A DNA stretch of 64,000 bases from Clostridiaceae bacterium (GCA_021771025.1 JAETPW010000007.1:60744-124743); one strand, 5' to 3'. Positions 2,064 to 59,106 are shown, numbered from the stretch's first letter. The notes: generated by a model from the letters alone, not told the origin. Translations and numbers: made by a program.

Positions 2064-4793
2064 ATGGAAAAGAAAATTTGGTTTACCAAAAGCATCGAAG
2101 AAGTAAAACAAGAATTACAAACAGATGAGGCAAATGGATTATCCTCAGAGGAAGTCAAAAAACGTCAAGAACAGTATGGGCTAAACGAATTACAAGCAGC
2201 CAAAAAGAAAAAACTATGGCAACGATTTTTAGATCAATTCAAAGATTTTTCCATCATTGTCTTAATCATTGCTGCCATTGTTTCAGGGGTAGTAGGAGTA
2301 GCAGAAGGCGAAGGAATTACGGATACGATTATTATTTTAATTGTTGTTTTAGTCAATGCCATTATTGGTATAGCTCAAGAAAGTAAAGCCGAAAAATCAT
2401 TAGAGGCTCTTCAACAACTAAGTAATCACGCAGCAAAAGTGATTCGTAATGGAACAATGGAAGTCATCCCTGCTAAAGAACTTGTACCAGGAGATGTTAT
2501 CGTTTTAGATACAGGAGATTATATTCCAGCAGATTTACGTGTAATAGAAGCCATCAATTTAAAATCACAAGAAAGTTCACTAACCGGAGAATCTGTCCCA
2601 GTAGAAAAAACAACAGGCAAGATTGATGATGAAGAAGTAGGAATAGGCGATAGAACCAATCTATTATTTTCTTCTAGCCTAATTACTTATGGCAGAGGAA
2701 AAGGAATTGTTGTTTCTACCGGTATGGAAACCGAAGTAGGAAAAATAGCCGGAATGATCAATAACACCGAAAAGCAAGAAACACCCTTACAGCGAAAATT
2801 AAATCAGTTAGGAAAAACATTAGGAACAGCAGCTTTACTCATTTGCGTATTCATTTTTGTTTTAGGACTATTCCAAGGAAAAGAACCAATTCATATGTTT
2901 ATGACAGCGGTATCGTTAGCAGTAGCAGCTATTCCAGAAGGGTTAGTAGCGGTATCTACCATTGTTCTTGCTATAGGGGTACAAAAAATGGTAAAACGTC
3001 ATGCCATCGTGAAAAGGCTTCCAGCAGTAGAGACATTAGGTGGGGCAACTGTCATTTGTTCAGATAAAACAGGAACGTTAACACAAAACAAAATGACCGT
3101 AGAAAAAATCTTTTGGAACGATTCTTTAAGAGAGTTAAAAGATATTCAAGAATCAGAAATGGACCAAGAATTAAAACAACTAGTCTATGCCAATATGTTA
3201 TGCAATGACACCAAAATAGGCAAAGAAGGGACACTAACAGGAGACCCAACCGAAACCGCGTTAGTTGATATGGCATTTGCTTTAAATTTCGATCCAAGCA
3301 TTTATGACCGTACCCCAAGAATAGAAGAAGTACCTTTTGACTCAGATCGAAAATTAATGACAACCGTCAACAAGGTAGGAAATGAATATGTCGTTTATAC
3401 CAAAGGAGGAATAGACGAATTATTAAGAAGATGTAACTCCTATGTATTAAATGGGGAAATATATCCTCAGATAGACCAATATATGCCTAAAATCAGAAAA
3501 GAAAACGAGGCAATGGCAAAAGAAGCATTACGTGTATTAGGATGTGCTTACAAAAAAATAGACCATCAGCCAAGTAAAGAAGAAATGGAAAAGATAGAGC
3601 AAGACCTTACCTTTATTGGTATGGTAGGAATGATTGATCCTCCAAGAGAAGAGGCTAAAAAGGCAGTAGAAACGTGTAAAATGGCGGGAATCAAAACCGT
3701 AATGATTACCGGAGATCACAAAATTACTGCTATTGCTATTGCCAAAAAATTAGGCATTATTGAGCAAGAAGACGAAGCATTAACTGGATTAGAATTAGAA
3801 CAAATGTCAGATGAAGAGTTAACCAAAAACATTAGAAAATATGCAGTATATGCTCGAGTTTCACCAGAACACAAAGTTCGTATCGTTAAAGCTTGGCAAA
3901 AAAACGGTGAAATTGTAGCCATGACAGGGGACGGAGTAAACGATAGCCCAGCCTTAAAAACGTCTGATATTGGTTGTGCTATGGGAATTGTTGGTACAGA
4001 TGTAGCAAAAGAAGCGGCAGATGTTATCCTAACTGATGACAATTTTGCAACCATTGTATCAGCCGTAGAAGAAGGAAGAAGAATATACGATAATATCTTA
4101 AAAGTAATTCAATTCTTACTATCTAGCAATGTAGGAGAAATTTTTGTTTTATTATTTGCTACTTTACTTACTCCTTTATTTGCCCAGTGGTTCGGCATAA
4201 CCGACATTAATCATTTAGAAATATTATTACCAATTCATATTTTGTGGATTAATTTAGTCACTGATTCATTGCCAGCTTTAGCCTTAGCCTTTGATCCAGC
4301 AAACCGTGATATTATGAAACGAAAACCAGTAAAACCAAGCCAAGGAGTATTCACCAAAGGAATGATTTGGCGAGTGATTTACCAAGGAGTTATGATTGGT
4401 GGACTTACTTTAGCAGCCTTTATGATTGGCCTTGCGACGACAACAGAGCCAATTGGAAACTTAAGTTTAGATGCTTCTAAAATTGAAATAGGGCAAACGA
4501 TGGCATTTATGACATTAGCTTTATCTGAGTTAGTTCATGTATTTAATGTAAGAGATAATAAAAACTCACTAGTTAAAACAAAAGTATTTAATAATACTAA
4601 ATTGATCTGGGCGGTATTAGCTTCGGCAACGCTAATGTTTGTTATTGTAGGTGTGCCTGGATTAAGAGAGGTATTTAGTATACCACTTCTTCCAAAGGAA
4701 AATGTGATTGAATTGGTTGCTTTGATTTTAGCACCAGTTGTGATTGTTGAATTGTTTAAGTTGATTAAAATAAATACTACAAAGGATGAGTAA
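2064..4793 (+). CDS. P-type cation-translocating ATPase (Ca2+-ATPase, PMCA/SERCA-like, type IIA)
   Basis: DKTGTLT phosphorylation motif, TGDGVNDSPALK, a cation-ATPase N-terminus, and ten predicted transmembrane segments; 909 aa. Confidence 0.9.
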   Translation: MEKKIWFTKSIEEVKQELQTDEANGLSSEEVKKRQEQYGLNELQAAKKKKLWQRFLDQFKDFSIIVLIIAAIVSGVVGVAEGEGITDTIIILIVVLVNAIIGIAQESKAEKSLEALQQLSNHAAKVIRNGTMEVIPAKELVPGDVIVLDTGDYIPADLRVIEAINLKSQESSLTGESVPVEKTTGKIDDEEVGIGDRTNLLFSSSLITYGRGKGIVVSTGMETEVGKIAGMINNTEKQETPLQRKLNQLGKTLGTAALLICVFIFVLGLFQGKEPIHMFMTAVSLAVAAIPEGLVAVSTIVLAIGVQKMVKRHAIVKRLPAVETLGGATVICSDKTGTLTQNKMTVEKIFWNDSLRELKDIQESEMDQELKQLVYANMLCNDTKIGKEGTLTGDPTETALVDMAFALNFDPSIYDRTPRIEEVPFDSDRKLMTTVNKVGNEYVVYTKGGIDELLRRCNSYVLNGEIYPQIDQYMPKIRKENEAMAKEALRVLGCAYKKIDHQPSKEEMEKIEQDLTFIGMVGMIDPPREEAKKAVETCKMAGIKTVMITGDHKITAIAIAKKLGIIEQEDEALTGLELEQMSDEELTKNIRKYAVYARVSPEHKVRIVKAWQKNGEIVAMTGDGVNDSPALKTSDIGCAMGIVGTDVAKEAADVILTDDNFATIVSAVEEGRRIYDNILKVIQFLLSSNVGEIFVLLFATLLTPLFAQWFGITDINHLEILLPIHILWINLVTDSLPALALAFDPANRDIMKRKPVKPSQGVFTKGMIWRVIYQGVMIGGLTLAAFMIGLATTTEPIGNLSLDASKIEIGQTMAFMTLALSELVHVFNVRDNKNSLVKTKVFNNTKLIWAVLASATLMFVIVGVPGLREVFSIPLLPKENVIELVALILAPVVIVELFKLIKINTTKDE

Positions 4794-4961
4794 GGTTAAT
4801 TTATCCTCGAAAGATCACTTTCTTTTTATCTTACTTTAGCGTTGGAAATAGTTAGATTTAGTTAGTGAAAGAAAATAAGTAATGAATAAAACCAGTGAAT
4901 ACTATCTCTAAATATAGTATTCATTGGTTTTTGTCGTTACTAGATAATAGTTTTTACGAAT

Positions 4962-5160
4962 GAGTCCGCTCTGAACCCAAGGCATCTGTAGTATTTTTGG
5001 GATAAATTTAGTCTTCCATAGCAGGGGCATTTTAAAACCCTTAAGTCCCTAACGAAGAGGCCTGTAATCGGGTTTTAAGGCTGACGCGGGTCTTAGGGAA
5101 CTGTCAGACGTAAATTTATCCCAAAAATACTACAGATACCTTGGGTTCAGAGCTACTTTG
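4962..5160. repeat. MITE-like structured repeat, family S, copy 1 (about 199 bp with about 50-bp terminal inverted repeats)
   Basis: The left arm AGTCCGCTCTGAACCCAAGGCATCTGTAGTATTTTTGGGATAAATTTA is the reverse complement of the right arm. The conserved core TCCATAGCAGGGGCATTTTAAAACCCTTAAGTCCC...GGGTTTTAAGGC...TCTTAGGGAACTG is shared with copies at 55959-56156 and 58988-59106. Confidence 0.8.
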
Positions 5161-5265
5161 TTGGAAAAGATTATTCAGTAACTTTTTGTTCATAAATGAT
5201 CTCAATTTGTAGAAAAAAATAAAAAAATATGTTATAGTGTAAAAATAAAATAGGAGGAAAATAAC

Positions 5266-6471: not shown

Positions 6472-9039
6472 ATGTACATTTTTAACCGCATTACTGTTAA
6501 TCCACAATTACCAAAACGAATCGAAAAATTAGCTGAAATTGCTAATAATTTATGGTGGGCGTGGAATTCAGAATTTTTAAGACTATTTAAAAAAATAGAT
6601 AAAGATCTATGGGAGGAATCTGGAAAAAATCCTGTCAAATTTCTCCGTCAAGTTTCTCAAGATCGTCTAGAAGAAGCATCAAAAGACATTCTTTTTTTGC
6701 GTGACTATGATCGCGTAGTAGAAAATTTTGAAGATTATATGAATAGCAAAAACACTTGGTTTGCTAATCGTTATCCAGAAAATAAAAATGACTTAATTGC
6801 TTATTTTTCAGCAGAATATGGCTTAGATGAAACCATTCCCATTTATTCAGGGGGCTTAGGTATTTTATCAGGAGACCATTTAAAATCAGCTAGTGATTTA
6901 GGAATTCCTCTAGTAGCGGTAGGATTATTATATAAAAATGGTTATTTTCATCAAAAAATTGATGGAAATGGTAAACAACAAACCGAATACCATGACATAG
7001 ATTTATACAATATGCCAATTCTTCCGGTAAAGGACGAAAAAGGCGAAGACTTAATGATCTACATCAAATTTCCCAAAAGAAGAATTTATCTAAAAGTATG
7101 GCAAATTAATGTAGGAAGAGTAAAATTATATTTACTTGACTCAGATATCGAAAAAAATAATCCAGAAGATCGTGATGTTACTTTGCGCCTATATGGTGGT
7201 GACCAAGAGATGAGAATCCGCCAAGAAATCGTTTTAGGTATGGGAGGAGTTAATCTACTTACTCGTGCTTTAAAACTAAAACCAACCGTTTATCACATGA
7301 ATGAAGGGCACTCTGCATTTTTAACGTTAGAATTAATCAAAAACATCATCAAAGAAAAAGAAGTTTCCTTTGATTTAGCAAAAGATATCGTTAGTTCAAA
7401 AACAGTATTTACTACTCACACACCAGTACCAGCAGGAAACGATATTTTTCCAATTTCTTTAGTAGAAAAATACTTCAAAGACTTCTGGCCAAGAATTGAC
7501 CTATCTCGTGAAGAATTTTTAAAGATGGGAATGAAACCATGCCAAGATTTAGAACCAGGATTTAATATGGGAATATTAGCCTTAAAAATTGCTGGAAAGA
7601 AAAATGGCGTAAGCAAACTTCATGGAGCAGTATCCAGAGAATTATTTGGAGAAGTTTGGCCAGAGATAGCCGCCAATGAATCACCAATCGGTCATGTTAC
7701 CAATGGAATTCATACTTGTTCATGGCTTGCTCCCAATTTAAAGGCTTTATACAATAAATATTTAATTCCTTATTGGCAAGATAATATTCAACACGATTAT
7801 GTTTGGGAAAAAATCAAAAACATTCCTGATGATAAATTATGGGATGCCCACCAAGATCGCAAAAATAAATTACTAAAAATCGTAAAAGACAACACAACCG
7901 AACGCCTAAGAAGATCAGGCTATCCTTATGAAGAAATAACCTCAATTGTTTCAAAATTAGATCCAAATGCACTAACCATTGGATTTGCCAGAAGATTTGC
8001 TACCTACAAAAGAGCAACCTTGATTTTTAAAGACTTAGAACGAATTACTCAAATCTTAAATAACAGTGATCGTCCAATTCAACTTATCTTTGCTGGAAAA
8101 GCCCATCCTGCTGACAAAGAAGGGCAAGACTTAATCAAATATATCCATGAAGTATCCATGATGCCACAATTTAAAGGCAAAATATTCTTATTGGAAAACT
8201 ACAATATTGCCATGTCACGTTACTTAATCAGTGGGGTAGACGTATGGCTTAACAACCCAAGAAGGCCAATGGAAGCATCAGGAACCAGCGGGCAAAAAGC
8301 ATCTGTCAATGGAGTGTTAAACTTCAGTGTATTAGACGGATGGTGGGCAGAAGGCTATAACCAAGAAAATGGTTGGACCATTGGAACAAACGCCGAATAC
8401 GATTCCTACGAAGCCCAAGACATGGCAGATAGCCAAAGTATGTATCGAACATTAGAAGAAAAAATTGTTCCTGCTTATTATGCCAAAGACAAAAATGGGG
8501 TCTCCCGAAAATGGATCAATTTAATGAAAAACTCAATTATCACCACAGGAGGAAAATACAGCACATCTCGTATGTTAGTTGACTACACAAGAGACCTATA
8601 TATACCTCTATGCAACCTAACCAATGAATACTACGAAAATGTAGACGATGTAGCATCTTATCACGCATGGAAACAAGAAATATACACCAATTGGAAAGAC
8701 ATTAAACTGCATCAAAAAAATAACTTAGACAACATCACCATTGATGCCGGAAATCAAATTGAGGTAAAATGTGAGGTAGAATTACCTAATATTGATCCAG
8801 AACACATCAGTGTGGAATGTTACTATGGAAAAATATTAGAAAATGGAGTAGTAGAAAACGTAACCATCATTCCAATGAATCTAGTAGAAATAAATGAAGA
8901 AACAAAAACGTATGGATACACAACCAAAATAGAACTAAAAACAGGAGGAAACTACGGTTATACCTTCCGCATTATGCCAAAACATGAGATGTTATTAGAA
9001 CCAGCCAATTTAAATTTAATTAAATGGATAACGAAATAG
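6472..9039 (+). CDS. glgP: alpha-glucan (glycogen/maltodextrin) phosphorylase, GT35 family
   Basis: 855 aa; DUF3417-type N-terminus, NEGHSAF motif, and a pyridoxal-phosphate lysine region (FARRFATYKR). Confidence 0.85.
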   Translation: MYIFNRITVNPQLPKRIEKLAEIANNLWWAWNSEFLRLFKKIDKDLWEESGKNPVKFLRQVSQDRLEEASKDILFLRDYDRVVENFEDYMNSKNTWFANRYPENKNDLIAYFSAEYGLDETIPIYSGGLGILSGDHLKSASDLGIPLVAVGLLYKNGYFHQKIDGNGKQQTEYHDIDLYNMPILPVKDEKGEDLMIYIKFPKRRIYLKVWQINVGRVKLYLLDSDIEKNNPEDRDVTLRLYGGDQEMRIRQEIVLGMGGVNLLTRALKLKPTVYHMNEGHSAFLTLELIKNIIKEKEVSFDLAKDIVSSKTVFTTHTPVPAGNDIFPISLVEKYFKDFWPRIDLSREEFLKMGMKPCQDLEPGFNMGILALKIAGKKNGVSKLHGAVSRELFGEVWPEIAANESPIGHVTNGIHTCSWLAPNLKALYNKYLIPYWQDNIQHDYVWEKIKNIPDDKLWDAHQDRKNKLLKIVKDNTTERLRRSGYPYEEITSIVSKLDPNALTIGFARRFATYKRATLIFKDLERITQILNNSDRPIQLIFAGKAHPADKEGQDLIKYIHEVSMMPQFKGKIFLLENYNIAMSRYLISGVDVWLNNPRRPMEASGTSGQKASVNGVLNFSVLDGWWAEGYNQENGWTIGTNAEYDSYEAQDMADSQSMYRTLEEKIVPAYYAKDKNGVSRKWINLMKNSIITTGGKYSTSRMLVDYTRDLYIPLCNLTNEYYENVDDVASYHAWKQEIYTNWKDIKLHQKNNLDNITIDAGNQIEVKCEVELPNIDPEHISVECYYGKILENGVVENVTIIPMNLVEINEETKTYGYTTKIELKTGGNYGYTFRIMPKHEMLLEPANLNLIKWITK

Positions 9040-9100
9040 GGAATAGGGAAAAATTAGCTAGGGAAAAAAGGGGACGCCCCAAACTTCCCTAGCTAAAAAT
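9040..9100. repeat. intergenic repeat family B (nested hairpin with a GGGGACGCCCC core)
   Basis: CTAGGGAAAAAAGGGGACGCCCCAAACTTCCCTAG. Similar copies at 20111-20160, 20701-20750 (reverse), 54842-54892 and 58859-58910, all immediately after stop codons. Confidence 0.7.
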
Positions 9101-9126
9101 TTGATAAAAAAAGAGCCACTAATTGT

Positions 9127-9155
9127 TTGACAAATCTAAAATAGTGTGTTATTAT
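9127..9155 (+). promoter_or_regulatory. near-consensus sigma-A promoter with no downstream ORF (candidate sRNA promoter)
   Basis: TTGACA, 17-nt spacer containing TGn, then TATTAT. Downstream are about 500 bp with no credible CDS, lying between convergent genes. Confidence 0.5.
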
Positions 9156-9662
9156 TGAGTTACAAAATGAATGTGTTTATCTAGTCGTTAGCATTCATAA
9201 AGTGAACGGGTGTGTATTGCAACTACACATCTTTTTATATGCAAAAAAATAGAGCAGAGTGCAACTCTCTACTCCATTCGACTATGTATTGCTACTTTTA
9301 GTCTTTGTTCACTTTTTCATCTTGCATTTGATTTTCTTGTTGTAGCAGAAAGTTTTTTTCCTTTTCTGCTATTACCATATCTATCAAATGAAGAATCACG
9401 TCGTTAGCATTCAATCTGTGAACCCCCTTTCCGCCCTTCAGAAAGGGCTACCTTTCTTAGCGTTAGGTTGGTAATATTTTACAATGTTTTGGTTGAAAAA
9501 TCAAGCGAACATTTATCATATTTTTACTTACATTTTTGTTGGACTTGATTTAAGTTTCTTAGCAAAATGTAATAAGTTAGAGATTATATGGACCTTTCAA
9601 AGAACAAAGTTATTTATTTTTTGGGGCTATATTCAAGAAAATGTGACCATGAATATGATGTA

Positions 9663-10910: not shown

Positions 10911-10980
10911 GTCTACCTCCTTGTCAATTCCTAAATTTACTGTTATAATATCATAAAATTAAACAAGGGTCAAACTTTTT

Positions 10981-11040
10981 CGTTTTGGGGACGGTTCTCA
11001 AAACGAAAAAATCTTCCGTTTGAGAACCGTCCCCAAAACG
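10981..11040. repeat. palindromic repeat family R (GGGGACGGTTC core)
   Basis: A 25-bp near-perfect inverted repeat, CGTTTTGGGGACGGTTCTCAAAACG / CGTTTGAGAACCGTCCCCAAAACG. Relatives at 51049-51133, 54061-54127, 57651-57710 and 50243-50280. Confidence 0.7.
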
Positions 11041-11061
11041 AAAAAGAGAAAGGAAAAAAGA

Positions 11062-44094: not shown

Positions 44095-44250
44095 GAAAAA
44101 ATAAGGGAAAAAAATTATTTTATCTTTTGAAAAGAAGGATGATTTTTAACTAAAGATAAAATAATTTTTTTCCAAAAAGTATTGACAAACAAATGAAAAA
44201 GCTTTATAATAACTACTGTTACCGAGGAAACTTAGTAACCAACTAAATAT

Positions 44251-44565
44251 GGGTAGGTGGCCGAGTGGCTAAAGGCGGCAGACTGTGGTCTTTGGTAAAA
44301 ACAAAACCTAAACTTGCAGCTCTTGTCAGTAATGATAAGATGAACACCGGGCTAATTCGGGGAACTCTAAGGGTAGAAATACTGATGACAATCCCGAGCT
44401 AGGAAGAAAACTTCCGAGTGTAGAGACTTTATACCTGGTATCTTCTAAGCAGAAGATAAAGAGAAAGTCCAGACTACAAACATGGTAAAATGGTAGTGAA
44501 AACTATAGTAGTAAGAAATCTGTTCTCATTTGAGTACGATGGTTCGAATCCATCCCTGCCCACCA
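44251..44565 (+). tRNA. tRNA-Tyr (GUA) gene interrupted by a group I intron in the anticodon loop
   Basis: Exon 1 (44251-44286) gives acceptor GGGUAGG, D-arm GCC-GAGUGGCUAAA-GGC, and anticodon stem GCAGA plus CUGU. Exon 2 (44516-44565) gives AAA, UCUGU, a long variable arm, T-arm GAUGG-UUCGAAU-CCAUC, CCUGCCC-A-CCA. The spliced anticodon loop is CUGUAAA. The exon sequence is very close to Bacillus tRNA-Tyr. Confidence 0.7.
44287..44515 (+). ncRNA. group I self-splicing intron (229 nt) within tRNA-Tyr
   Basis: The upstream exon ends in U and the intron ends in G (omega-G). P-, Q-, R- and S-like elements are present (AATTCGGGGAAC, AATCCCGAGC, TCCAGACTACA, AAACTATAGTAG), and GCAG 30 nt inside the intron can pair with the exon end CUGU. 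Confidence 0.65.
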
Positions 44566-44595
44566 AAAATACAAGGAAACTTGTATTTTATTTTT
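44562..44595 (+). repeat. 34-bp direct repeat (att-like), left copy; also the tRNA terminator hairpin
   Basis: Identical to 49076-49109. Confidence 0.8.
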
Positions 44596-44638
44596 CTATT
44601 ACACACGAACAAAGGTTCTAAATAAAAAGGGGAAGAAT

Positions 44639-45019
44639 ATGAATTTTGCTACTAATAAAGAAAAGGGAAATTCAGGATTAGGCATAGCCATTGCCTATTT
44701 TTCGACGAATGGATATACTGTTTCCATACCGTTAAACGACACTCAAGATTATGATTTGATTGTAGAGAAAGACGGGAAATTGAAAACGATACAAATAAAA
44801 GCAACTGGATGTAAAACTAAATGGGGAAATTATCAAGTAGCTTTAAAAAGTTGTGGTGGAACAAAGGGGAAAAGTTATAAGACAGTCATTGAGACGAGAG
44901 TAGATGAATTATTTATCGTAAATGATAGGCAAGAGATGTACCTAATTCCCATTAATGATATTAAGAATAAATCAACTTTAACCTTATGTTCAAAGTATGA
45001 TAAATATAGAGTTTACTAA
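44639..45019 (+). CDS. small PD-(D/E)xK-fold nuclease-like protein (YraN/Hjc-like pattern)
   Basis: GNSGLGIAIAYFSTNGYTVSIPLNDTQDYDLIVEKDGKLKTIQIKAT follows the G-GE-A--L---GY-I....GEIDLI....L-FVEVK template of UPF0102-type nucleases. Confidence 0.4.
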   Translation: MNFATNKEKGNSGLGIAIAYFSTNGYTVSIPLNDTQDYDLIVEKDGKLKTIQIKATGCKTKWGNYQVALKSCGGTKGKSYKTVIETRVDELFIVNDRQEMYLIPINDIKNKSTLTLCSKYDKYRVY

Positions 45020-45183
45020 TATTTCTGTGCTTTAAATTTTGTAGTAAATTTAAAATTGGTTTAAATAAGTCTCTAATAGAAAAATGCAAGATATGCAGTT
45101 ACTCATTTCTGTAAGTAATTGTTTTTTTTGTAATTTTGTGATATAAAATTGGTAAAATAAAAATTTATACGAGGAGAAAAGTA

Positions 45184-45733
45184 AATGGATAATTATTTTA
45201 TAATACATGGAAGCTTTGGAAGCCCGTTGTAAATTGGTTTAGTTGGTTACAAGATTTTATATCATGTGATGGAAAACAAGTATATGTACCACAATTTCCA
45301 ATAGGAGTAGGTTATCAAAATTATGGAAATTGGAGTAAACTACTTAAATACTATTTAGATTTAGGTTTAATCAATAAAAATACAACAATAATCGGTCATA
45401 GTATTGCACCAGTATTTATATCAAGATTTTTAATTGAAAATGAAGTAAAGGTCAAAAAATTAATATTTGTATGTGGATTTAACAATTATTTAGGAATAGA
45501 CGAAGAATATGATACAGTAAATAAAACAATGTATTTTGATAATTTGAAAGATGTAAAGAAATATGCAAATGAAATTATTTGTTTCTATTCAGAAATGATC
45601 CATATGTAAAATACGAAGTAGAAAGAGAATTTGCAGACAAGATTCGGGGCAGAGCAAGTTCTATTACCTAATGCAGGACACATAAATAGCGAAAGTGGAT
45701 ATGACACATTTGAAGACATAGCAAATTATATTT
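45184..45733 (+). pseudogene. YdeN/RBBP9-like serine hydrolase, disrupted by frameshifts
   Basis: MDNYFIIHGSFGSP, then stop. Other frames give NWFSWLQDFISCDGKQVYVPQFP...IIGHSIAPVFISRF...ICFYSE and then a frameshifted C-terminus. The ORF track shows nothing of 60 aa or more here. Confidence 0.5.
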
Positions 45734-45746
45734 AAAGAGGTAAAAA

Positions 45747-46095
45747 ATGAAAATAGTAAAATTTAGTGATGCACAAACAGTAAAAAATAGTCATACAAGT
45801 AAATTATTAGAATATTCGATAGATTTAAATGATAAAGATATTGATTTTTGTATAAATACAATTAGTGGTCAATATCCAGAAAAAGGATATTGCACTAATG
45901 AAAGATGCAAAGAAATCTGTTATATACTAGAGGGAAAGGGAACTCTTAATAAAAGAGATGAAAGTATTAATTTTGAAAAAGGTGTGTATTTTAATAGAAA
46001 AAGAAGAAATTTACTATTGGAATGGAAATTGCGAAATAATTATGATATGCACTCCTGCTTGGTATAAAGAACAATGTAAGTTATTAGATTTATAG
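45747..46095 (+). pseudogene. cupin-domain protein with probable C-terminal frameshift
   Basis: The ORF ends with FNRKRRNLLLEWKLRNNYDMHSCLV, whereas the +1 frame reads the cupin-typical EKEEIYYWNGNCEIIMICTPAWYKEQ. Confidence 0.4.
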
Positions 46096-46121
46096 AAAAA
46101 ATTTTAAAGGAGATAAATAAT

Positions 46122-47174
46122 ATGTCAAATCAATTTCAACTATTAGATGATCACTTTATAAAAATTGTAAAAGATATTGAAAAGGATATTTTAGATACAA
46201 GATATAATATCATTTCAAGGGCAAATAAAGAGGTGGTAAATTTTTATTTAAGACTTGGAAAAATAATTAGTGATAATGCTAAATATGGGAATAATTTTAT
46301 TAATAGATTATCAGTAGCATTAAAATTAGATTTTCCAGATGAGCAGGGATTTTCGGCTCGTAATCTAGCAAGAATGAGAAAAGTATATGAAGCATATAAA
46401 GATTTATCTAGTATTCCAAAAGAATTAGAAATAATATCATGGTCACAAAATTGTGTTTTAGTAGATAAAATTGAAGATATTGATAAAAGAGTTTGGTATG
46501 CTAAGCAAATTATTGAAAATGGTTGGTCTAAAACTGTATTAAGCCATCAAATTGATTTAGAATTATATGAAAGACAAGCATTACCAGATAAAATGACCAA
46601 TTTTAATGATAAGCTACCTATTGCACAAAGCGAATTTGCTAGAGATATGATAAAAGATCCATATATTTTTGAATTAGCTAACATAGGAAAAAGAGCAAAA
46701 GAAAGAGATATTGAAAAGGCAATGTTAGAAAGAATAAAGAATGTGTTGCTTGAATTAGGCAAAGGTTTTAGTTTTGTTGGAAATCAATATAAAATTTCAA
46801 CCAATGATAATGATTATTATATAGATTTATTATTTTATCACTTGGATTTAAGATGTTTTGTAGTTGTAGAATTAAAAAATACAGAGTTTAAACCTGAATA
46901 TGTTGGACAATTAGGATTTTATGTAACAGCAGTTGATGAAACTTTGAAAAAAGAAACAGACAATGAAACGATAGGATTATTACTTTGTGAAGATAAGGAT
47001 AAACTAACAGTTGAATGGTCTTTAAAAGGTGTAAATGCACCAATAGGAGTAGCTTCATATAAAGTGAAAAATGTTATTCCAAAAGAAATAATGGAGAAAT
47101 TACCAACGGAAGAAGAATTAAATTTATATATAAAAAAATTACCAAATGAGGAAATTGAAGGAGAAAGTGATTAG
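46122..47174 (+). CDS. DUF1016 (YhcG-like) protein with C-terminal PD-(D/E)xK nuclease domain
   Basis: YhcG-type N-terminal domain; C-terminal nuclease motif D-LLFYH...VVVELK. Paralog of the fragment at 1-279. Confidence 0.75.
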   Translation: MSNQFQLLDDHFIKIVKDIEKDILDTRYNIISRANKEVVNFYLRLGKIISDNAKYGNNFINRLSVALKLDFPDEQGFSARNLARMRKVYEAYKDLSSIPKELEIISWSQNCVLVDKIEDIDKRVWYAKQIIENGWSKTVLSHQIDLELYERQALPDKMTNFNDKLPIAQSEFARDMIKDPYIFELANIGKRAKERDIEKAMLERIKNVLLELGKGFSFVGNQYKISTNDNDYYIDLLFYHLDLRCFVVVELKNTEFKPEYVGQLGFYVTAVDETLKKETDNETIGLLLCEDKDKLTVEWSLKGVNAPIGVASYKVKNVIPKEIMEKLPTEEELNLYIKKLPNEEIEGESD

Positions 47175-47180
47175 TATTTT

Positions 47181-47206
47181 GAAATTTGCCACTGGTGGCA
47201 AATTTC
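47181..47206 (+). other. palindromic hairpin between the DUF1016 gene and the downstream gene
   Basis: GAAATTTGCCACTGGTGGCAAATTTC. A variant, GAAATTTGCCGCCAGTGGCAAAATTT, follows the next gene at 49042-49067. Confidence 0.6.
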
Positions 47207-47230
47207 ATATATAGATTGTATGAGGAAAAA

Positions 47231-49036
47231 ATGAAAGAATTAGATAATAAAATAAATTTAGGAAAAGTAACGGAAAATCACTTTAAAGAAAGTAAATCAA
47301 TAACAATTTTAAGAGAAATTGTAGAGAAAAATAATAGAATTAAGGTAAGAGCAACTGAAGCAGATAAAATAGCAAATTTAGATGGTAAAGTAGTAATAAT
47401 AGATAAAAATAGTTTCGAAAGGATTCATATTGAAATACAAGTAAAAACATTACCAGAAAAATATAATTTGAGGAAACAGTATTCATATAGTTGCGATACA
47501 AAAGCTTTCAATGTTGTTTTAGAACATATTACATTTAATTCAGTTGTATTATTTTTGGTTGATGAGCAAACAAATAGAGTATTTTGGAAATTAATTTCAA
47601 ATGAATATGCAAAAAGTTTGAATATCGGAAATCAAGAAAAAAAGACAATATATTTTAATGATCAAGATTTATATAGTGAAAATAATTTTATAGAAAAGAT
47701 AAGCGATTATTGTGATTCACTTTGTGAAATAATAGATAAAAAAGATGCTAATAAAAGTTTAATTTCATCAAATATAGATGAATATAGTACAGAATATATA
47801 GAGATACAAATGCAAGTTGACAGATTAAAAAATATATTCGATAATGAATTAAAACATATTAAAGATGTATTTTTTAAATATGTATGGAAATTTGGAATAT
47901 CATATAATAAGTTTCAAAAGCAAACTGCAATGGGCATTTATTTTATTACATATGGAAAGAATGATACTTTAATAAAAAGATTTGACCCTAGACTAAATTA
48001 TATACATATGTCTATTAATTTTCAAAAAAATATTACATTAGAAGCATATATTAATGAATGGTTAGAAGAAGTAAAAAAACAATATTATTTAAAAGAACCA
48101 ATTCTTGTGAAAAATTTATCAGATGATATATTGAATGAAATTGTATTTAGTTTTTTAGATAAACTAACAATGAATATTAAAGTATTAGAAGATAAAAATA
48201 GACCATACACATACTATAAAGATGAGGAAAAAGTCAATAATATAGTTAATCTTATAAATGCTTTAGAATTATTTTATGAAGAAATAATAAAAACGAAAGA
48301 TTTGTCAAATGTAAGTAGTGCTGTTGCTTTTCTTACACCTACATATAATTTGACTGGCAAATTCTTACTCTTTAACCCTCTTATACAATTTAATGCTGAT
48401 GAAATAAAATTGTTAAACCAATATTTTAATCAAACTAATCCCAATGTCCCTCTAAAATTTTTGGATAATGGAGAAGATAAAAAAATACAATTAAGTTTTT
48501 TAGCAATACAAGAATTACAGAAACGTACAAGGGACAGTATAAAAAGAATATGGAATAAGAAAAATATAGTAAAATGTAAAGAAGATTTTGCAAAAGAAGT
48601 TCAATGTATTAGAACAGGGTATTCTAAAGAAGATTTAATAATAAATTCAAAGCACTTTTTTGATATTATTGCCGAAAATTATAATTTTGTGTTTAATAAG
48701 TCTAGTTATTCAGATAAATATTATTTAGATGATTTACATTTAATAGTGTTAGATGAAAACGAAATACAAACATATAATGATTATATTACCCAAAATAATG
48801 TTTTCGAAGTGAAAAGGATTTGTAATGATATAAAAATTGATGAAGAGAATATTATTTCTATAATTGAATCTAATTTAGAATGCTTATTTTTGCTAGATAC
48901 TCCACTATATGAAACTGTTAGAATATTGTTATATATTGGTATTATGAAAAATAATGACTATAAAGTAAAAGATGAAAATGTAAACTATAGTGTTAAATTT
49001 GAAGAATTACCTATCATTAATTATTATATAGATTAA
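47231..49036 (+). CDS. 601-aa protein with N-terminal DUF4365/Mrr-like PD-(D/E)xK-type domain and a large uncharacterised C-terminal region
   Basis: ATG at 47231 with a GAGGA RBS. N-terminus LDGKVVIIDKNSFERIHIEIQVKT...FWKLIS fits the D...E.QVK signature of the DUF4365 restriction-endonuclease-like fold. The remaining roughly 430 aa have no recognisable motif. About 24% GC. Confidence 0.55.
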   Translation: MKELDNKINLGKVTENHFKESKSITILREIVEKNNRIKVRATEADKIANLDGKVVIIDKNSFERIHIEIQVKTLPEKYNLRKQYSYSCDTKAFNVVLEHITFNSVVLFLVDEQTNRVFWKLISNEYAKSLNIGNQEKKTIYFNDQDLYSENNFIEKISDYCDSLCEIIDKKDANKSLISSNIDEYSTEYIEIQMQVDRLKNIFDNELKHIKDVFFKYVWKFGISYNKFQKQTAMGIYFITYGKNDTLIKRFDPRLNYIHMSINFQKNITLEAYINEWLEEVKKQYYLKEPILVKNLSDDILNEIVFSFLDKLTMNIKVLEDKNRPYTYYKDEEKVNNIVNLINALELFYEEIIKTKDLSNVSSAVAFLTPTYNLTGKFLLFNPLIQFNADEIKLLNQYFNQTNPNVPLKFLDNGEDKKIQLSFLAIQELQKRTRDSIKRIWNKKNIVKCKEDFAKEVQCIRTGYSKEDLIINSKHFFDIIAENYNFVFNKSSYSDKYYLDDLHLIVLDENEIQTYNDYITQNNVFEVKRICNDIKIDEENIISIIESNLECLFLLDTPLYETVRILLYIGIMKNNDYKVKDENVNYSVKFEELPIINYYID

Positions 49037-49075
49037 AATGTGAAATTTGCCGCCAGTGGCAAAATTTATTTTCAA

Positions 49076-49109
49076 ACCAAAAATACAAGGAAACTTGTAT
49101 TTTATTTTT
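49076..49109 (+). repeat. 34-bp direct repeat (att-like), right copy
   Basis: Identical to 44562-44595. Confidence 0.8.
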
Positions 49110-49238
49110 ATTTTTTATTATCGAATAAAAAATAACCCTCAATCCCAAAAAAAGTAAATAAATCACCAAACTCCATTGAAATTATCCCCAAAATGTGATA
49201 AAAATATAGTCAGCATAAATGAAGGAGGAAAAGCCAAA

Positions 49239-50234
49239 ATGTTTAATCGAGCAGAAGAAACAAATAAAGGACCAAAAATAAAAGTAATCGGAGTAGGGGG
49301 AGCAGGAAACAATGCTGTCAACCGAATGATAGAAGATGGAGTAAAAGGAGTAGGATTTTACCTAATCAACACCGAAACAGGAACCCTAAAAAGAGCAACC
49401 ACCAAAAATATATTACAGATCGGAATAGAAACAACCAAAGGACTAGGAGCAGGAGCAAACGAAAATGTAGGCGAAAAAGCAGCAAGAGAAAACAAAGAAC
49501 AAATCAAGCAAATCTTACAAGGTGCAGATATGGTCTTTATTACTGCAGGAATGGGAGGCGGAACGGGAACAGGAGCAGCACCAGTAGTAGCCGAAATTGC
49601 CAAAGAAATGGGAATCCTAACCGTAGGAGTAGTAACCAAACCATTCCTATTTGAAGGAAAAGCAAGAAAAGTAAGAGCCGAATATGGAATCAAAAAACTA
49701 AGAGAACACGTAGATGACCTAATTGTCATTTTAAACGACAATTTATTAAAAATTACTGACGAAAAAGTAACCTTAAATTCAGCCTTCTTTTTAGCCGATC
49801 AAGTTTTAGAACAAGGGATCACCAGCGTAACAGACTTACTTACCTCAGTAGGAGAAGTCAACATCGACTTTGCCGACATACGAACAACCCTAAAATATCA
49901 AGGAAAAGCCTATATGGGAATAGGAAGAGCATCAGGAGAAAAGAAAATAGAAGAAGCAGTCAAACAAGCCATCAGCAGTCCATTAACAGAAAACAAAATT
50001 AATGGAGCACAAGGAGTTATCTTCAACGTAAAAGGAGACGAAAGCCTAAGCCTAATGGAAATCAATAGTGCCATTACCCTAATCAACGACCAAATTAGGG
50101 AAGATGCCAACGTTATTTTTGGAACAGTCATTGATCCAAAAATGAACGGAGAAGTAGCGGTAACCGTTATAGCAACCGGAGTAGACGAACAAAATAAAAA
50201 CGTAAATCCTATGGCAAAACAACTAACAAAATAA
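49239..50234 (+). CDS. ftsZ: cell division protein FtsZ
   Basis: GVGGAGNNAVNRM, tubulin signature GGGTGTGAAPVVA; no ftsA upstream. Confidence 0.85.
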   Translation: MFNRAEETNKGPKIKVIGVGGAGNNAVNRMIEDGVKGVGFYLINTETGTLKRATTKNILQIGIETTKGLGAGANENVGEKAARENKEQIKQILQGADMVFITAGMGGGTGTGAAPVVAEIAKEMGILTVGVVTKPFLFEGKARKVRAEYGIKKLREHVDDLIVILNDNLLKITDEKVTLNSAFFLADQVLEQGITSVTDLLTSVGEVNIDFADIRTTLKYQGKAYMGIGRASGEKKIEEAVKQAISSPLTENKINGAQGVIFNVKGDESLSLMEINSAITLINDQIREDANVIFGTVIDPKMNGEVAVTVIATGVDEQNKNVNPMAKQLTK

Positions 50235-51005: not shown

Positions 51006-51048
51006 CAATCTAACTCCTTAATAAAGAGCGAACATTAAAACCAATAAC

Positions 51049-51133
51049 CTGTCCCTAAAACGAAAAAATCTTCCTTTTGAGAACCGTCCCCAAAAAGAAA
51101 AAAACTTCTTTTTGGGGACGGTTCTTAAAAAGA
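51049..51133. repeat. repeat family R copy (18-bp perfect palindrome AGAACCGTCCCCAAAAAG / CTTTTTGGGGACGGTTCT)
   Basis: Read directly from the sequence. Confidence 0.7.
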
Positions 51134-51206
51134 AAAAATTAAGATTTTCTCTATTTGTTCTTAAGGTTTTTTGTGGTATACTATTGATAATAAGAGGAGG
51201 AGAGTT

Positions 51207-54012: not shown

Positions 54013-54060
54013 ACTTTTTTCAAAATTTCTTGAACAAGCTTATCAATTGTGATAAAATAA

Positions 54061-54127
54061 AGAAAATCTTCTTTTTGGGGACGGTTCCGAAAACGAAAAA
54101 ATTTTCTTTTTAGGGACAGGTTTCAAG
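54061..54127. repeat. repeat family R copy
   Basis: TTTTTGGGGACGGTTCCGAAAACGAAAAAATTTTCTTTTTAGGGACAGG. Confidence 0.65.
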
Positions 54128-55960: not shown

Positions 55961-56156
55961 GTCCGCTCTGAACCTGAGGTATCTGTAATATTTTTTAGAT
56001 AAATTTAGTCCTCTATAGCAGGGGCATTTTAAAACCCTTAAGTCCCTCACAAAGAAGCTTGTTATCGGGTTTTAAGCCTAACGTGAGTCTTAGGGAACTG
56101 TTAGACGTAAATTTATCTAAAAAATATTACAGATACCTCAGGTTCAGAGCTACTTT
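55959..56156. repeat. MITE-like structured repeat, family S, copy 2
   Basis: AAGTCCGCTCTGAACCTGAGGTATCTGTAATATTTTTTAGATAAATTTA...core...TAAATTTATCTAAAAAATATTACAGATACCTCAGGTTCAGAGCTACTTT. The terminal-repeat differences from copy 1 are compensated in both arms. It overlaps the radical SAM stop codon. Confidence 0.8.
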
Positions 56157-58910: not shown

Positions 58911-58987
58911 AATCCATTGGTTATTATTCACAGCTTGCTGAAATTGGTAACCGTGTAAAAAAGGAAGCCTAGCTAATGGTGATCATA

Positions 58988-59106
58988 TTAATTTAACCTT
59001 CCATAGCAGGGTCAATTTAAAACCCTTAGGTCCCTCACATGGAAGCCTGTTATCGGGTTTTAAGCCTAACGTGGGTCTTAGGGAACTGTCAGGTATAAAT
59101 TATAAC
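58988..59106. repeat. family S copy 3 (core only, lacks the long terminal inverted repeats)
   Basis: AATTTAACCTTCCATAGCAGGGTCAATTTAAAACCCTTAGGTCCCTCACATGGAAGCCTGTTATCGGGTTTTAAGCCTAACGTGGGTCTTAGGGAACTGTCAGG. Confidence 0.7.

Follow-up and report, generated by a model that had tools for sequence, protein, structure and literature searches.

We analyzed the interval between a tRNA-Tyr gene and ftsZ in a 64,000-nucleotide stretch of DNA from a Clostridiaceae bacterium (GCA_021771025.1 JAETPW010000007.1:60744-124743; hereafter the window), in which an islet at positions 44562-49109 is bounded by perfect 34-bp direct repeats. An earlier note on this DNA had read the repeats as the attL and attR junctions of an integrative element whose integrase was lost. 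We propose instead, with a probability of roughly 0.6, that the tRNA-Tyr/ftsZ interval is an accretion hot spot and the islet a fossil remnant rather than a self-contained element. The right 34-mer would then probably be the fossil of an old attR and the left one a regenerated, usable attachment site attB. Within the same locus, the tRNA-Tyr gene is interrupted by a group I intron and followed by a conserved gene for a nuclease related to homing endonucleases.

Direct repeats and element junctions at the tRNA-Tyr CCA end

An exact search of the whole window recovered the 34-mer ACCAAAAATACAAGGAAACTTGTATTTTATTTTT in exactly two copies on the + strand, at 44562-44595 and 49076-49109; allowing 3 mismatches added no further copy in the window, and not one copy appeared in 100 shuffles. 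The repeat begins with the last four nucleotides of tRNA-Tyr (discriminator A and CCA), continues as a hairpin of a 10-bp stem and GAAA loop (44566-44589 in the left copy) and closes with a T run; weak similarity around both copies reaches 39 nt. Folding of the terminator hairpin as RNA gave -9.8 kcal/mol (z -4.6). The left junction (tRNA, 34-mer and first open reading frame [ORF]) is crossed by sequences from other assemblies (L003, L016, L113 and L122) and the right junction (DUF4365 gene, 34-mer and ftsZ) independently by L114. At least 22 samples contain the islet interior as a unitig of 4540 nt (44566-49105) with the repeat at both ends, a length explained by the branching of a k = 31 graph at a 34-nt repeat. 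The perfect repeats at the tRNA 3' end thus stand as the earlier note had described them, as does the low GC content, measured at 0.20-0.27 in the islet against 0.30-0.39 in the flanks.

Contigs of the same species part from the window right after ...CCCACCAA (44566), with flanks 97% (L001) and 99.9% (L002) identical. Past the divergence, L001 reads AGAGCAATTTTCGTCGAAC... and then encodes a 564-amino acid protein with Resolvase, Recombinase and Zn-ribbon domains; the catalytic N-terminus of this recombinase (MNEERKIAGIYIRVSTDDQ...; L001:11603-11680) lies in another frame, as a frameshift pseudogene or through an assembly error. An opposite end is found in L122, which comes from the same metagenome as L001 (JGI sample 3300044856). 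There, ThsA-Macro and ThsB-TIR genes (L122:36-1375) stand beside a conserved right-end region of ~200 nt whose last bases are ...TTAAGGCACCA. The sequence then continues with 100% identity to window positions 44561-44713, which comprise the hairpin, the spacer and 75 nt from the start of the nuclease gene, and a truncated locus and ftsZ come next. Elements joined at CACCA(A) thus occupy the left junction in the same-species loci L001, L002 and L122, in agreement with the earlier placing of an integration site at the tRNA-Tyr 3' end.

Judged from these junctions, the attachment site reads tRNA...CACCAA followed by the hairpin, and the elements insert past the CCA and ahead of the hairpin. No more than CACCA(A), ~6 bp, is common to element and target at the attL of L001, the attR of L122, both ends of a 2-kb relative contained within the single locus L049, and the L116 junction, where a right arm is joined via CACCA to the left arm of the next element, as expected from accretion. 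Both window repeats contain (A)CCAA. In L103, a recombinase with a C-terminus 60% identical to that of L001 is accompanied by a NikA-like protein and a MobA/VirD2-type relaxase, and the element is therefore an integrative mobilizable element. The elements at the site carry a large serine recombinase at the left end, a relaxase and defense-type cargo, and they ferry defense systems, as with Thoeris in L122. Intact relatives at the site (L001, L103) carry a serine recombinase; no tyrosine integrase was noticed among the annotated ORFs, the loci not having been screened for one. An element in L090 carries the nuclease gene inside it. Right ends of the forms ...CGCTAAGGCACCA and ...GTTGTAAATAACTACGTCAACGGCACCA were considered as decayed copies of tRNA-Tyr or its intron, as would result from a long duplication, but their local alignments were no better than those of shuffles, and we therefore treated them as element arms; only the ...TCCTGCCCACCA-type right end shares 10-12 nt with the tRNA. 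For the element attP, we infer ...TTAAGGCACCAAGAGCAATTTTCGTCGAAC....

The left copy in the window consists of tRNA, CACCA and terminator without the AGAGCAATTTTCGTCGAAC-type arm of L001 and L002, and the right copy is without the ...CGCTAAGGCACCA arm of L103, L116 and L122. With element-side arms absent from both copies and only CACCA(A) shared at intact junctions, the 34-mers do not have the structure of attL and attR. Because the arms are missing from both, the left copy together with the tRNA is an intact attB, and the right copy is a core plus the terminator side from which the arm was deleted, with no nuclease gene behind it.

The interval between the repeats is also not the unit that integrated, because its first gene is a resident neighbor of tRNA-Tyr. 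This gene (44639-45019, + strand) encodes a free-standing 126-amino acid PD-(D/E)XK nuclease of the I-Ssp6803I family. The earlier note had called it YraN-like; the ORF matches PF11645 (PDDEXK_5) instead, with E 1.3e-17 and 64.5 bits against a cut-off of 26.1. The single sequence matched the I-Ssp6803I structure in the PDB (2OST) with E 8.7e-4, and for a profile of 23 homologues 2OST was the sole PDB match (E 8.4e-6). The residues PLxD...YDL...QVK, aligned to 2OST, are invariant in the 23 homologues, among which 46 columns are invariant in total. Homologue clusters number >2000, all ~126 amino acids long and the best ones 70-77% identical, and a scan with one genome per species placed homologues in 133 species of uncultured gut Clostridia.

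We retrieved and examined 80 loci of related species (L033-L112). The nuclease gene starts at most 150 nt past the tRNA-Tyr CCA, behind the terminator hairpin, in 58 of the 80 loci, and in 8 further ones the tRNA sits 0.2-2 kb upstream; in the window, the gene begins 74 nt past the tRNA 3' end. In L040, L051 and L070, ftsZ follows directly after the nuclease gene and is 76-78% identical to that of the window. Across these genomes, the order tRNA-Tyr, hairpin, nuclease and ftsZ is a conserved backbone in which the nuclease gene is a resident and not cargo. The same three loci represent the empty site whose comparison the earlier note had proposed, found in other species and not in this one, and with this order conserved in related species, the lack of an upstream ftsA does not result from the islet. 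The window ftsZ (49239-50234, + strand), the conserved right-hand neighbor, encodes 331 amino acids, or 352 from an alternative TTG start at 49176; the 352-amino acid version gave exact matches. L040 has two FtsZ paralogues within 5 kb (3492-4382 and 8595-9464; 54% and 76% identical to the window protein), and the ftsZ beside tRNA-Tyr may be one of two in this clade. In L007:1-1324 (DRR848702), the amidase gene is identical but the match to the window starts only at 50054, inside ftsZ, with unrelated genes upstream, the ftsZ 5' region being disrupted or strongly divergent in that sample.

Beyond the nuclease gene, with all parts on the + strand, the islet carries a block of genes that is the right-hand part of an element. 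A spacer (45020-45175), which from 45117 onward is common to the L113 allele and may contain the rearrangement join, leads to a 2-kb cargo module (45176-47208). The module holds a hydrolase pseudogene (PF06821; 45186-45735) with at least three frame disruptions; a cupin pseudogene (45747-46095) with one frameshift, yet intact in other samples (L013, L023); a DUF1016/YhcG nuclease gene with DUF1016_N and YhcG_C domains (46122-47174; PADLOC PDC-S02, E 3e-122); and a hairpin, hp2 (47180-47208). Between hp2 and a second hairpin, hp2' (49041-49069), a variable slot (47209-49069) is occupied by a gene for a 601-amino acid protein with an N-terminal DUF4365 domain (47231-49036). The frameshifted hydrolase and cupin and the DUF1016/DUF4365-like pair of the earlier note were thus all recovered. 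Its statement that no integrase is present also agrees with our results: the five annotated islet ORFs include no recombinase or relaxase, and tblastn of the whole window with the L001 serine recombinase and the L103 relaxase gave no match.

At the nucleotide level, window positions 45188-47208 match L103:4699-6722 with 92.7% identity; that L103 segment belongs to the recombinase- and relaxase-bearing element, and its hydrolase and cupin are intact. The 2-kb block recurs with 92-94% identity in L115-L121, a multi-element island in which tRNA-Tyr and the nuclease gene are absent within 10 kb. For comparison, protein identity between the nucleases of the window and L103 is only 72%; the higher identity of the block and its presence in the L115-L121 island indicate that it moved horizontally. 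The slot holds the 601-amino acid DUF4365 gene in the window, a 351-amino acid gene in L103 and L032, and a 376-amino acid gene in L115-L121, and is flanked by a pair of GC-cored hairpins (AAATTTGCCnnnnnnGGCAAA; window 47180-47208/49041-49069, L103:6694-6722/7738-7765, L116:11061/12370); three unrelated genes between conserved hairpins look like the outcome of cassette exchange. Homology to L103 resumes at hp2'-TTTATTTTCAAA and then ends at the right-hand breakpoint (49070-49075), the end of element sequence, where the window reads CCAAAAATAC...; L103 runs on for ~165 nt to its arm ...GGCACCA, a right-end stretch that is deleted in the window. The idea of an integrative element with a lost integrase therefore survives in part: the cargo is element-derived and the recombinase is gone, but the nuclease gene is resident and the whole interval is not the unit.

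Alleles of the same species bear on the history of the two copies. L113 and L122 keep only the last 7 nt (GTATTTT) of the right hairpin before a shared ftsZ-upstream sequence, and the right copy is old because these two alleles, with different genes before ftsZ, both retain this end. In L001 taken with L122, a newer element sits exactly at the left site on a background of L113 type, and the left site is thus still usable. L113 itself has a nuclease remnant and the hydrolase between tRNA-Tyr and ftsZ and only one 34-mer; genes in this interval without the repeat pair had been named in the earlier note as counting against its proposal. Orphan genes without Pfam match (L113:1140-2162, 340 amino acids; L122:1882-4193, 80, 132, 172 and 211 amino acids) replace the cupin, DUF1016 and DUF4365 genes in these alleles, giving at least three cargo configurations within one species.

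The anatomy of the window recurs in other species. In canonical integrations (L103, L049, L122), the element lies between the tRNA and the hairpin-nuclease module, whereas the window has the module on the left side of the remnant. In L071, 37-bp repeats starting from CACCA surround an intact nuclease gene, NUDIX, HD and DUF1016 genes and a 570-amino acid gene, and on the right side the order is element arm, right repeat, an internally deleted second nuclease gene and ftsZ. In L057 and L078, repeats starting from (C)ACCA surround the nuclease gene and only ~250-300 nt of the element right end. In each of these loci, a copy of the module stands in place of the recombinase-bearing left part of the element. 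The left copy is intact in each case, and the right copy is decayed or, in the window and L078, has no nuclease gene behind it; the two nuclease copies of L071, and likewise those of L057, are mutually closest (87-88% identical). The repeat sequences vary by species and match the host's own terminator, so that the position is shared and not the sequence. Using the window hairpin as query, we found no second hairpin copies within 8 kb of the 80 loci; second copies emerged only with the hairpin of the respective locus as query. The layout arose independently in the three other species. Right behind the second CACCA-hairpin copy of L078 (L078:8792-9053) is a group II intron (RF02001, 100 bits), which fits the insertion of bacterial group II introns behind terminators.

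The hairpin itself is unusually constant. Its 24-nt near-palindromic core (44566-44589), loop included, is identical in 15 genomes (the window and L034, L035, L039, L046, L047, L060, L062, L072, L076, L084, L087, L101, L105 and L107), in which the adjacent spacer is 69%, the third codon positions of the nuclease 62% and the nuclease gene ~79% identical. This constraint exceeds the needs of a terminator, and the hairpin is a candidate protein-binding site for the recombinase or the nuclease. As to the concern that the 34-mer might be a common terminator, within the window it is not, having two copies only, but its 24-nt core is the tRNA-Tyr terminator of many other species.

Proposed history of the islet and competing explanations

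In the history that we favor, an older element would have integrated at the tRNA-Tyr CCA, and a rearrangement would then have returned a copy of the hairpin and nuclease gene to the tRNA while removing the left part of the element, including the recombinase. The outcome would be the observed order of tRNA, CCA-hairpin, nuclease, element remnant, CCA-hairpin and ftsZ. As a possible route, break repair could copy the module from a sister or allele with a free site, with end-joining afterwards; single-crossover insertion of recombinase-less DNA carrying the module, or breaks made by the nuclease, would fit the end states as well. Recurrence could reflect selection. The nuclease gene itself lacks an obvious promoter, the sole obvious one before the tRNA and the nuclease gene being a promoter-like site upstream of tRNA-Tyr (44182-44210, + strand; TTGACA, 17 nt, TATAAT; 12/12 matches), and the gene putatively relies on read-through from it. 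Restored tRNA-nuclease adjacency may be favored because the gene stands, without obvious promoter, behind a strong tRNA promoter. As both element arms are absent, a serine recombinase should not excise the islet, and its loss would occur only by rare homologous recombination across 34 bp.

Several observations weigh against this history. The re-coupling is deduced from end states with no intermediate seen, and a join with a diagnostic sequence was not identified. L001 and L122 are separate contigs of one metagenome whose linkage is assumed, and the L001 recombinase has the N-terminal frameshift described above. The empty allele comes only from other species, with ftsZ 76-78% identical, and the tRNA promoter is a putative driver of the nuclease gene. 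Finally, in L017 the DUF4365 end is joined through a single 34-mer to the nuclease gene in a circularly permuted order; if genuine, this would represent an islet circle or tandem amplification, which our model deems rare. L017 does not prove a circle, as the 34-nt repeat exceeds the k of 31 and a unitig may cross it spuriously if the other branches lack coverage.

Among the alternatives, we consider it unlikely that a Campbell-type, homology-facilitated and RecA-dependent insertion brought in recombinase-less DNA, as a circle or a transformed fragment, carrying the hairpin-nuclease module and cargo, duplicating the module, with later decay of the right copy. A single crossover predicts the order of L071 and L057 exactly (tRNA, hairpin-nuclease, cargo, arm-CACCA, hairpin-nuclease), the L071 duplication extends beyond the hairpin over the whole nuclease gene, and a nuclease gene inside an element is known from L090. 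A hairpin that stays identical among genomes with ~79% identical nuclease genes could also serve as a cross-species landing pad, and L017 has the sequence expected of such a circle. The right copy of the window, however, has no nuclease remnant, leaving a visible duplication of just 34 bp; the mutually closest copies of L071 and L057 (87-88%) are unlike a resident and foreign pair; and no circular or plasmid form was found, the L017 junction being possibly an assembly artifact at a 34-nt repeat longer than k = 31. A duplication driven by the nuclease, in which the PF11645 protein would cut at the tRNA-Tyr 3' end or hairpin, repair from a sister or foreign copy would re-install the module and end-joining would delete the left part of the element, seems to us distinctly improbable. 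It draws on the family membership of I-Ssp6803I, a tRNA-gene-specific homing endonuclease recognizing a 23-bp pseudo-palindrome, on the 24-bp near-palindromic hairpin directly upstream of the gene and its identity in 15 genomes against 62% at nuclease third codon positions, on repeat boundaries that are alike in four species despite differing hairpins, and on left-part deletions that vary, leaving from ~250 nt to 4.3 kb of element. Yet the putative target is intact beside the gene in every genome and the cleavage is itself a sequence-based proposal, the common CACCA left boundary is already accounted for by the recombinase core, and 46 invariant columns in 23 sequences fit a host function better than a selfish one.

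That the whole of 44562-49109 is one element, with the 34-mers as true attL and attR and a lost integrase, most simply a tyrosine recombinase, that would have recognized 34 bp common to attP and attB, we regard as very unlikely. The perfect repeats starting inside the tRNA gene, the low interior GC content and the circle-like junction of L017 agree with it. The nuclease and its upstream hairpin, however, are conserved beside tRNA-Tyr in species without a second repeat; the tRNA contributes only 4 nt (ACCA) to the repeat; the elements seen at the site use a serine recombinase and a core of ~6 bp, with no tyrosine integrase noticed in annotated ORFs of loci not screened for one; the repeats of L071, L057 and L078 differ from those of the window and follow the host terminators; and L113 holds the left part of the supposed element without the right repeat. 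The second option of the earlier note, a cassette captured by duplication of the terminator, comes closer to the final anatomy but misses the serine-recombinase origin. An assembly artifact or a chance local duplication without biological meaning is barely credible: the genome is metagenome-derived, and repeats that exceed k interrupt short-read assemblies and can cause wrong joins, but both junctions and the interior recur in many independent samples, the 34-mer occurs in none of 100 shuffles, and analogous repeats exist in three other species.

The tRNA-Tyr intron, its nuclease and other features of the window

Neither ARAGORN nor Rfam at the gathering score reported a tRNA at the site. The tRNA-Tyr(GTA) gene occupies 44251-44565 on the + strand and is split between anticodon nucleotides 35 and 36 by 229 nt. 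Its 5' exon (44251-44286) ends in ...CAGACUGU, with anticodon nucleotides 34-35, as placed by the sequence, unitig ends and L113. An intron of group I without ORF (44287-44515; RF00028 and covariation) follows in the anticodon loop, and the 3' exon (44516-44565) ends in the discriminator A and CCA, CACCAA being the crossover core. The intron bounds were set from Rfam at an E-value threshold, contig breakpoints and the intronless allele; a brute-force exon-joining scan for the tRNA was uninformative. The intron scored 34.9 bits against RF00028 (E 2.6e-7), under the gathering score of 50, and an Rfam E-value search of 12 other loci (58 kb) did not recover it at E <= 0.001. We placed 60 distinct introns of 201-247 nt in related genomes, and of the 54 related-species loci in which both exons were located, 52 contain the intron. 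Alignment of the window intron with 32 others (33 in total) gave 65 predicted pairs, 21 of them with compensatory changes. The exon CUGU pairs with the intron GCAG in the P1 helix, with a U-G pair at the 5' splice site, and all aligned introns have the terminal G.

When the two exons are joined, a canonical tRNA-Tyr anticodon arm results, and its sequence is the very one that occurs naturally in the L113 allele: L113 is intronless, with GACTGT running unbroken into AAATCTG, and its ftsZ product is identical to that of the window. Unitigs of other assemblies (L004, L005) end exactly at 44286, as expected if both alleles coexist. The intron is polymorphic within the species. Because it hides the gene from standard tRNA finders, tRNA-Tyr will seem to be missing from these genomes. 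For group I introns in bacterial tRNA genes, the tRNAscan-SE 2.0 paper lists tRNA-fMet and tRNA-Ile2; in the searchable literature, which is incomplete and does not prove novelty, we found no report of an intron in tRNA-Tyr or of its association with a nuclease.

Collaborative homing, with the nuclease cutting intronless tRNA-Tyr genes, is weakened by L036, in which an intact nuclease gene stands beside an intronless tRNA-Tyr with the same exon sequence as the window; as far as the sequences go, this argues against the anticodon loop as a universal target of the nuclease. L083 has an intact nuclease gene, no intron and a variant anticodon stem, and L031 has the same variant stem and a nuclease gene apparently without a start codon. 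It is conceivable, but in our judgment unlikely, that the PF11645 protein is an active, domesticated relative of I-Ssp6803I whose site is the 24-bp palindromic tRNA-Tyr terminator or the tRNA 3' end, and that its breaking or binding of DNA there makes the hot spot. If so, the nuclease would drive its own re-coupling to the tRNA and thereby produce the CCA-hairpin repeats, and it might also police the polymorphic group I intron; the clade would then share a three-way arrangement of intron, free-standing nuclease and defense-island landing pad.

Elsewhere, the window begins within another DUF1016/YhcG gene (1-246, C-terminal part), which has 41% identity to that of the islet and lies ~1.5 kb upstream of tRNA-Glu (1790-1864). 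Secondary BLAST matches in the comparison of L001 and L122 with the window revealed dispersed short repeats of ~40-230 nt and 84-100% identity (~4960-5183, 10976-11045, 36858-36906, 51046-51140, 54055-54122, 55965-56150 and 58987-59101), which may be a small intergenic repeat family or resemble miniature inverted-repeat transposable elements.

Relation to known systems and significance

The islet resembles the cis-mobilizable elements (CIMEs) and tandem accretions of ICESt1-type and streptococcal mobilizable elements (PMC5704250) in lying at a tRNA 3' end between direct repeats, and the locus shares with them a site that stays open and leads to tandem or composite islands (L116, L122). Like a CIME, it originates from a mobilizable element, as the L103 match indicates, and has no integration and transfer genes of its own; as to mobilization in cis by a neighboring element, the L017 junction is at most suggestive. 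It differs in not retaining attL and attR with element arms, the left repeat being a plain attB; in its recombination system, a large serine recombinase with a ~6-bp core against a tyrosine integrase with long tRNA-derived identity; and in the resident nuclease gene within the repeats. The islet is best called a fixed remnant in an accretion hot spot. In tRNA islands of tyrosine integrases, the repeat is a substantial tRNA 3' segment, whereas the islet repeat has only ACCA from the tRNA and is otherwise terminator. The large serine recombinase stands by the left junction in L001 and L103 and is absent from the window, where only a remnant is left. Composites of staphylococcal cassette chromosome (SCC) and pseudo-SCC elements are a further parallel.

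The ssrA islands of Dehalococcoides (PMC3146451) are likewise serine-recombinase mobilizable elements that target the 3' end of a single-copy gene, tRNA-like or essential, with the recombinase beside the left junction, tandem units and some units without recombinase; a short copy of the target's end borders each element. In those islands this copy is the 20-bp ssrA 3' end, whereas at tRNA-Tyr the target gives no more than CACCA(A), and the terminator downstream of it makes up the long repeat. The ssrA islands also have no neighbor resembling a homing endonuclease and no intron.

For the nuclease, the nearest comparison is I-Ssp6803I, a PD-(D/E)XK homing endonuclease in the group I intron of the Synechocystis tRNA-fMet gene (PDB 2OST; PMC3384342), whose relatives are known mainly from cyanobacteria (PMC3384342). 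Both proteins are small members of PF11645 tied to a tRNA gene with a group I intron in the anticodon loop. Unlike the I-Ssp6803I gene, the window gene lies outside the intron, after the tRNA terminator; it is associated with tRNA-Tyr and not fMet, occurs in gut Clostridia and not cyanobacteria, and is highly conserved across >100 species. In cyanophage, the free-standing endonuclease F-CphI reportedly acts with an ORF-less psbA intron in collaborative homing. The likeness is that a free-standing nuclease gene adjoins a gene with a group I intron that has no ORF, here with intron-bearing and intronless alleles in one species (window and L113); L036, intronless with an intact nuclease gene, speaks against the anticodon loop as a universal target.

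Perfect repeats at the end of a tRNA gene, if no integrase accompanies them, are not necessarily attL and attR, and reading the present pair as an attB and a fossil junction alters the predictions on islet mobility. The tRNA-Tyr CCA, with the core CACCAA, emerges as a site of serine-recombinase mobilizable elements that move defense-type cargo, including Thoeris and DUF1016 with a swappable partner gene, among uncultured gut Clostridia whose hosts are humans, goats, rabbits and chickens. The islet is ordinary in kind; the greater surprise is the intron and nuclease pair, in which the tRNA-Tyr gene of dozens of species carries a group I intron and is joined to a strongly conserved nuclease gene. 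The pair offers a tractable system for studying how relatives of homing endonucleases become host genes.

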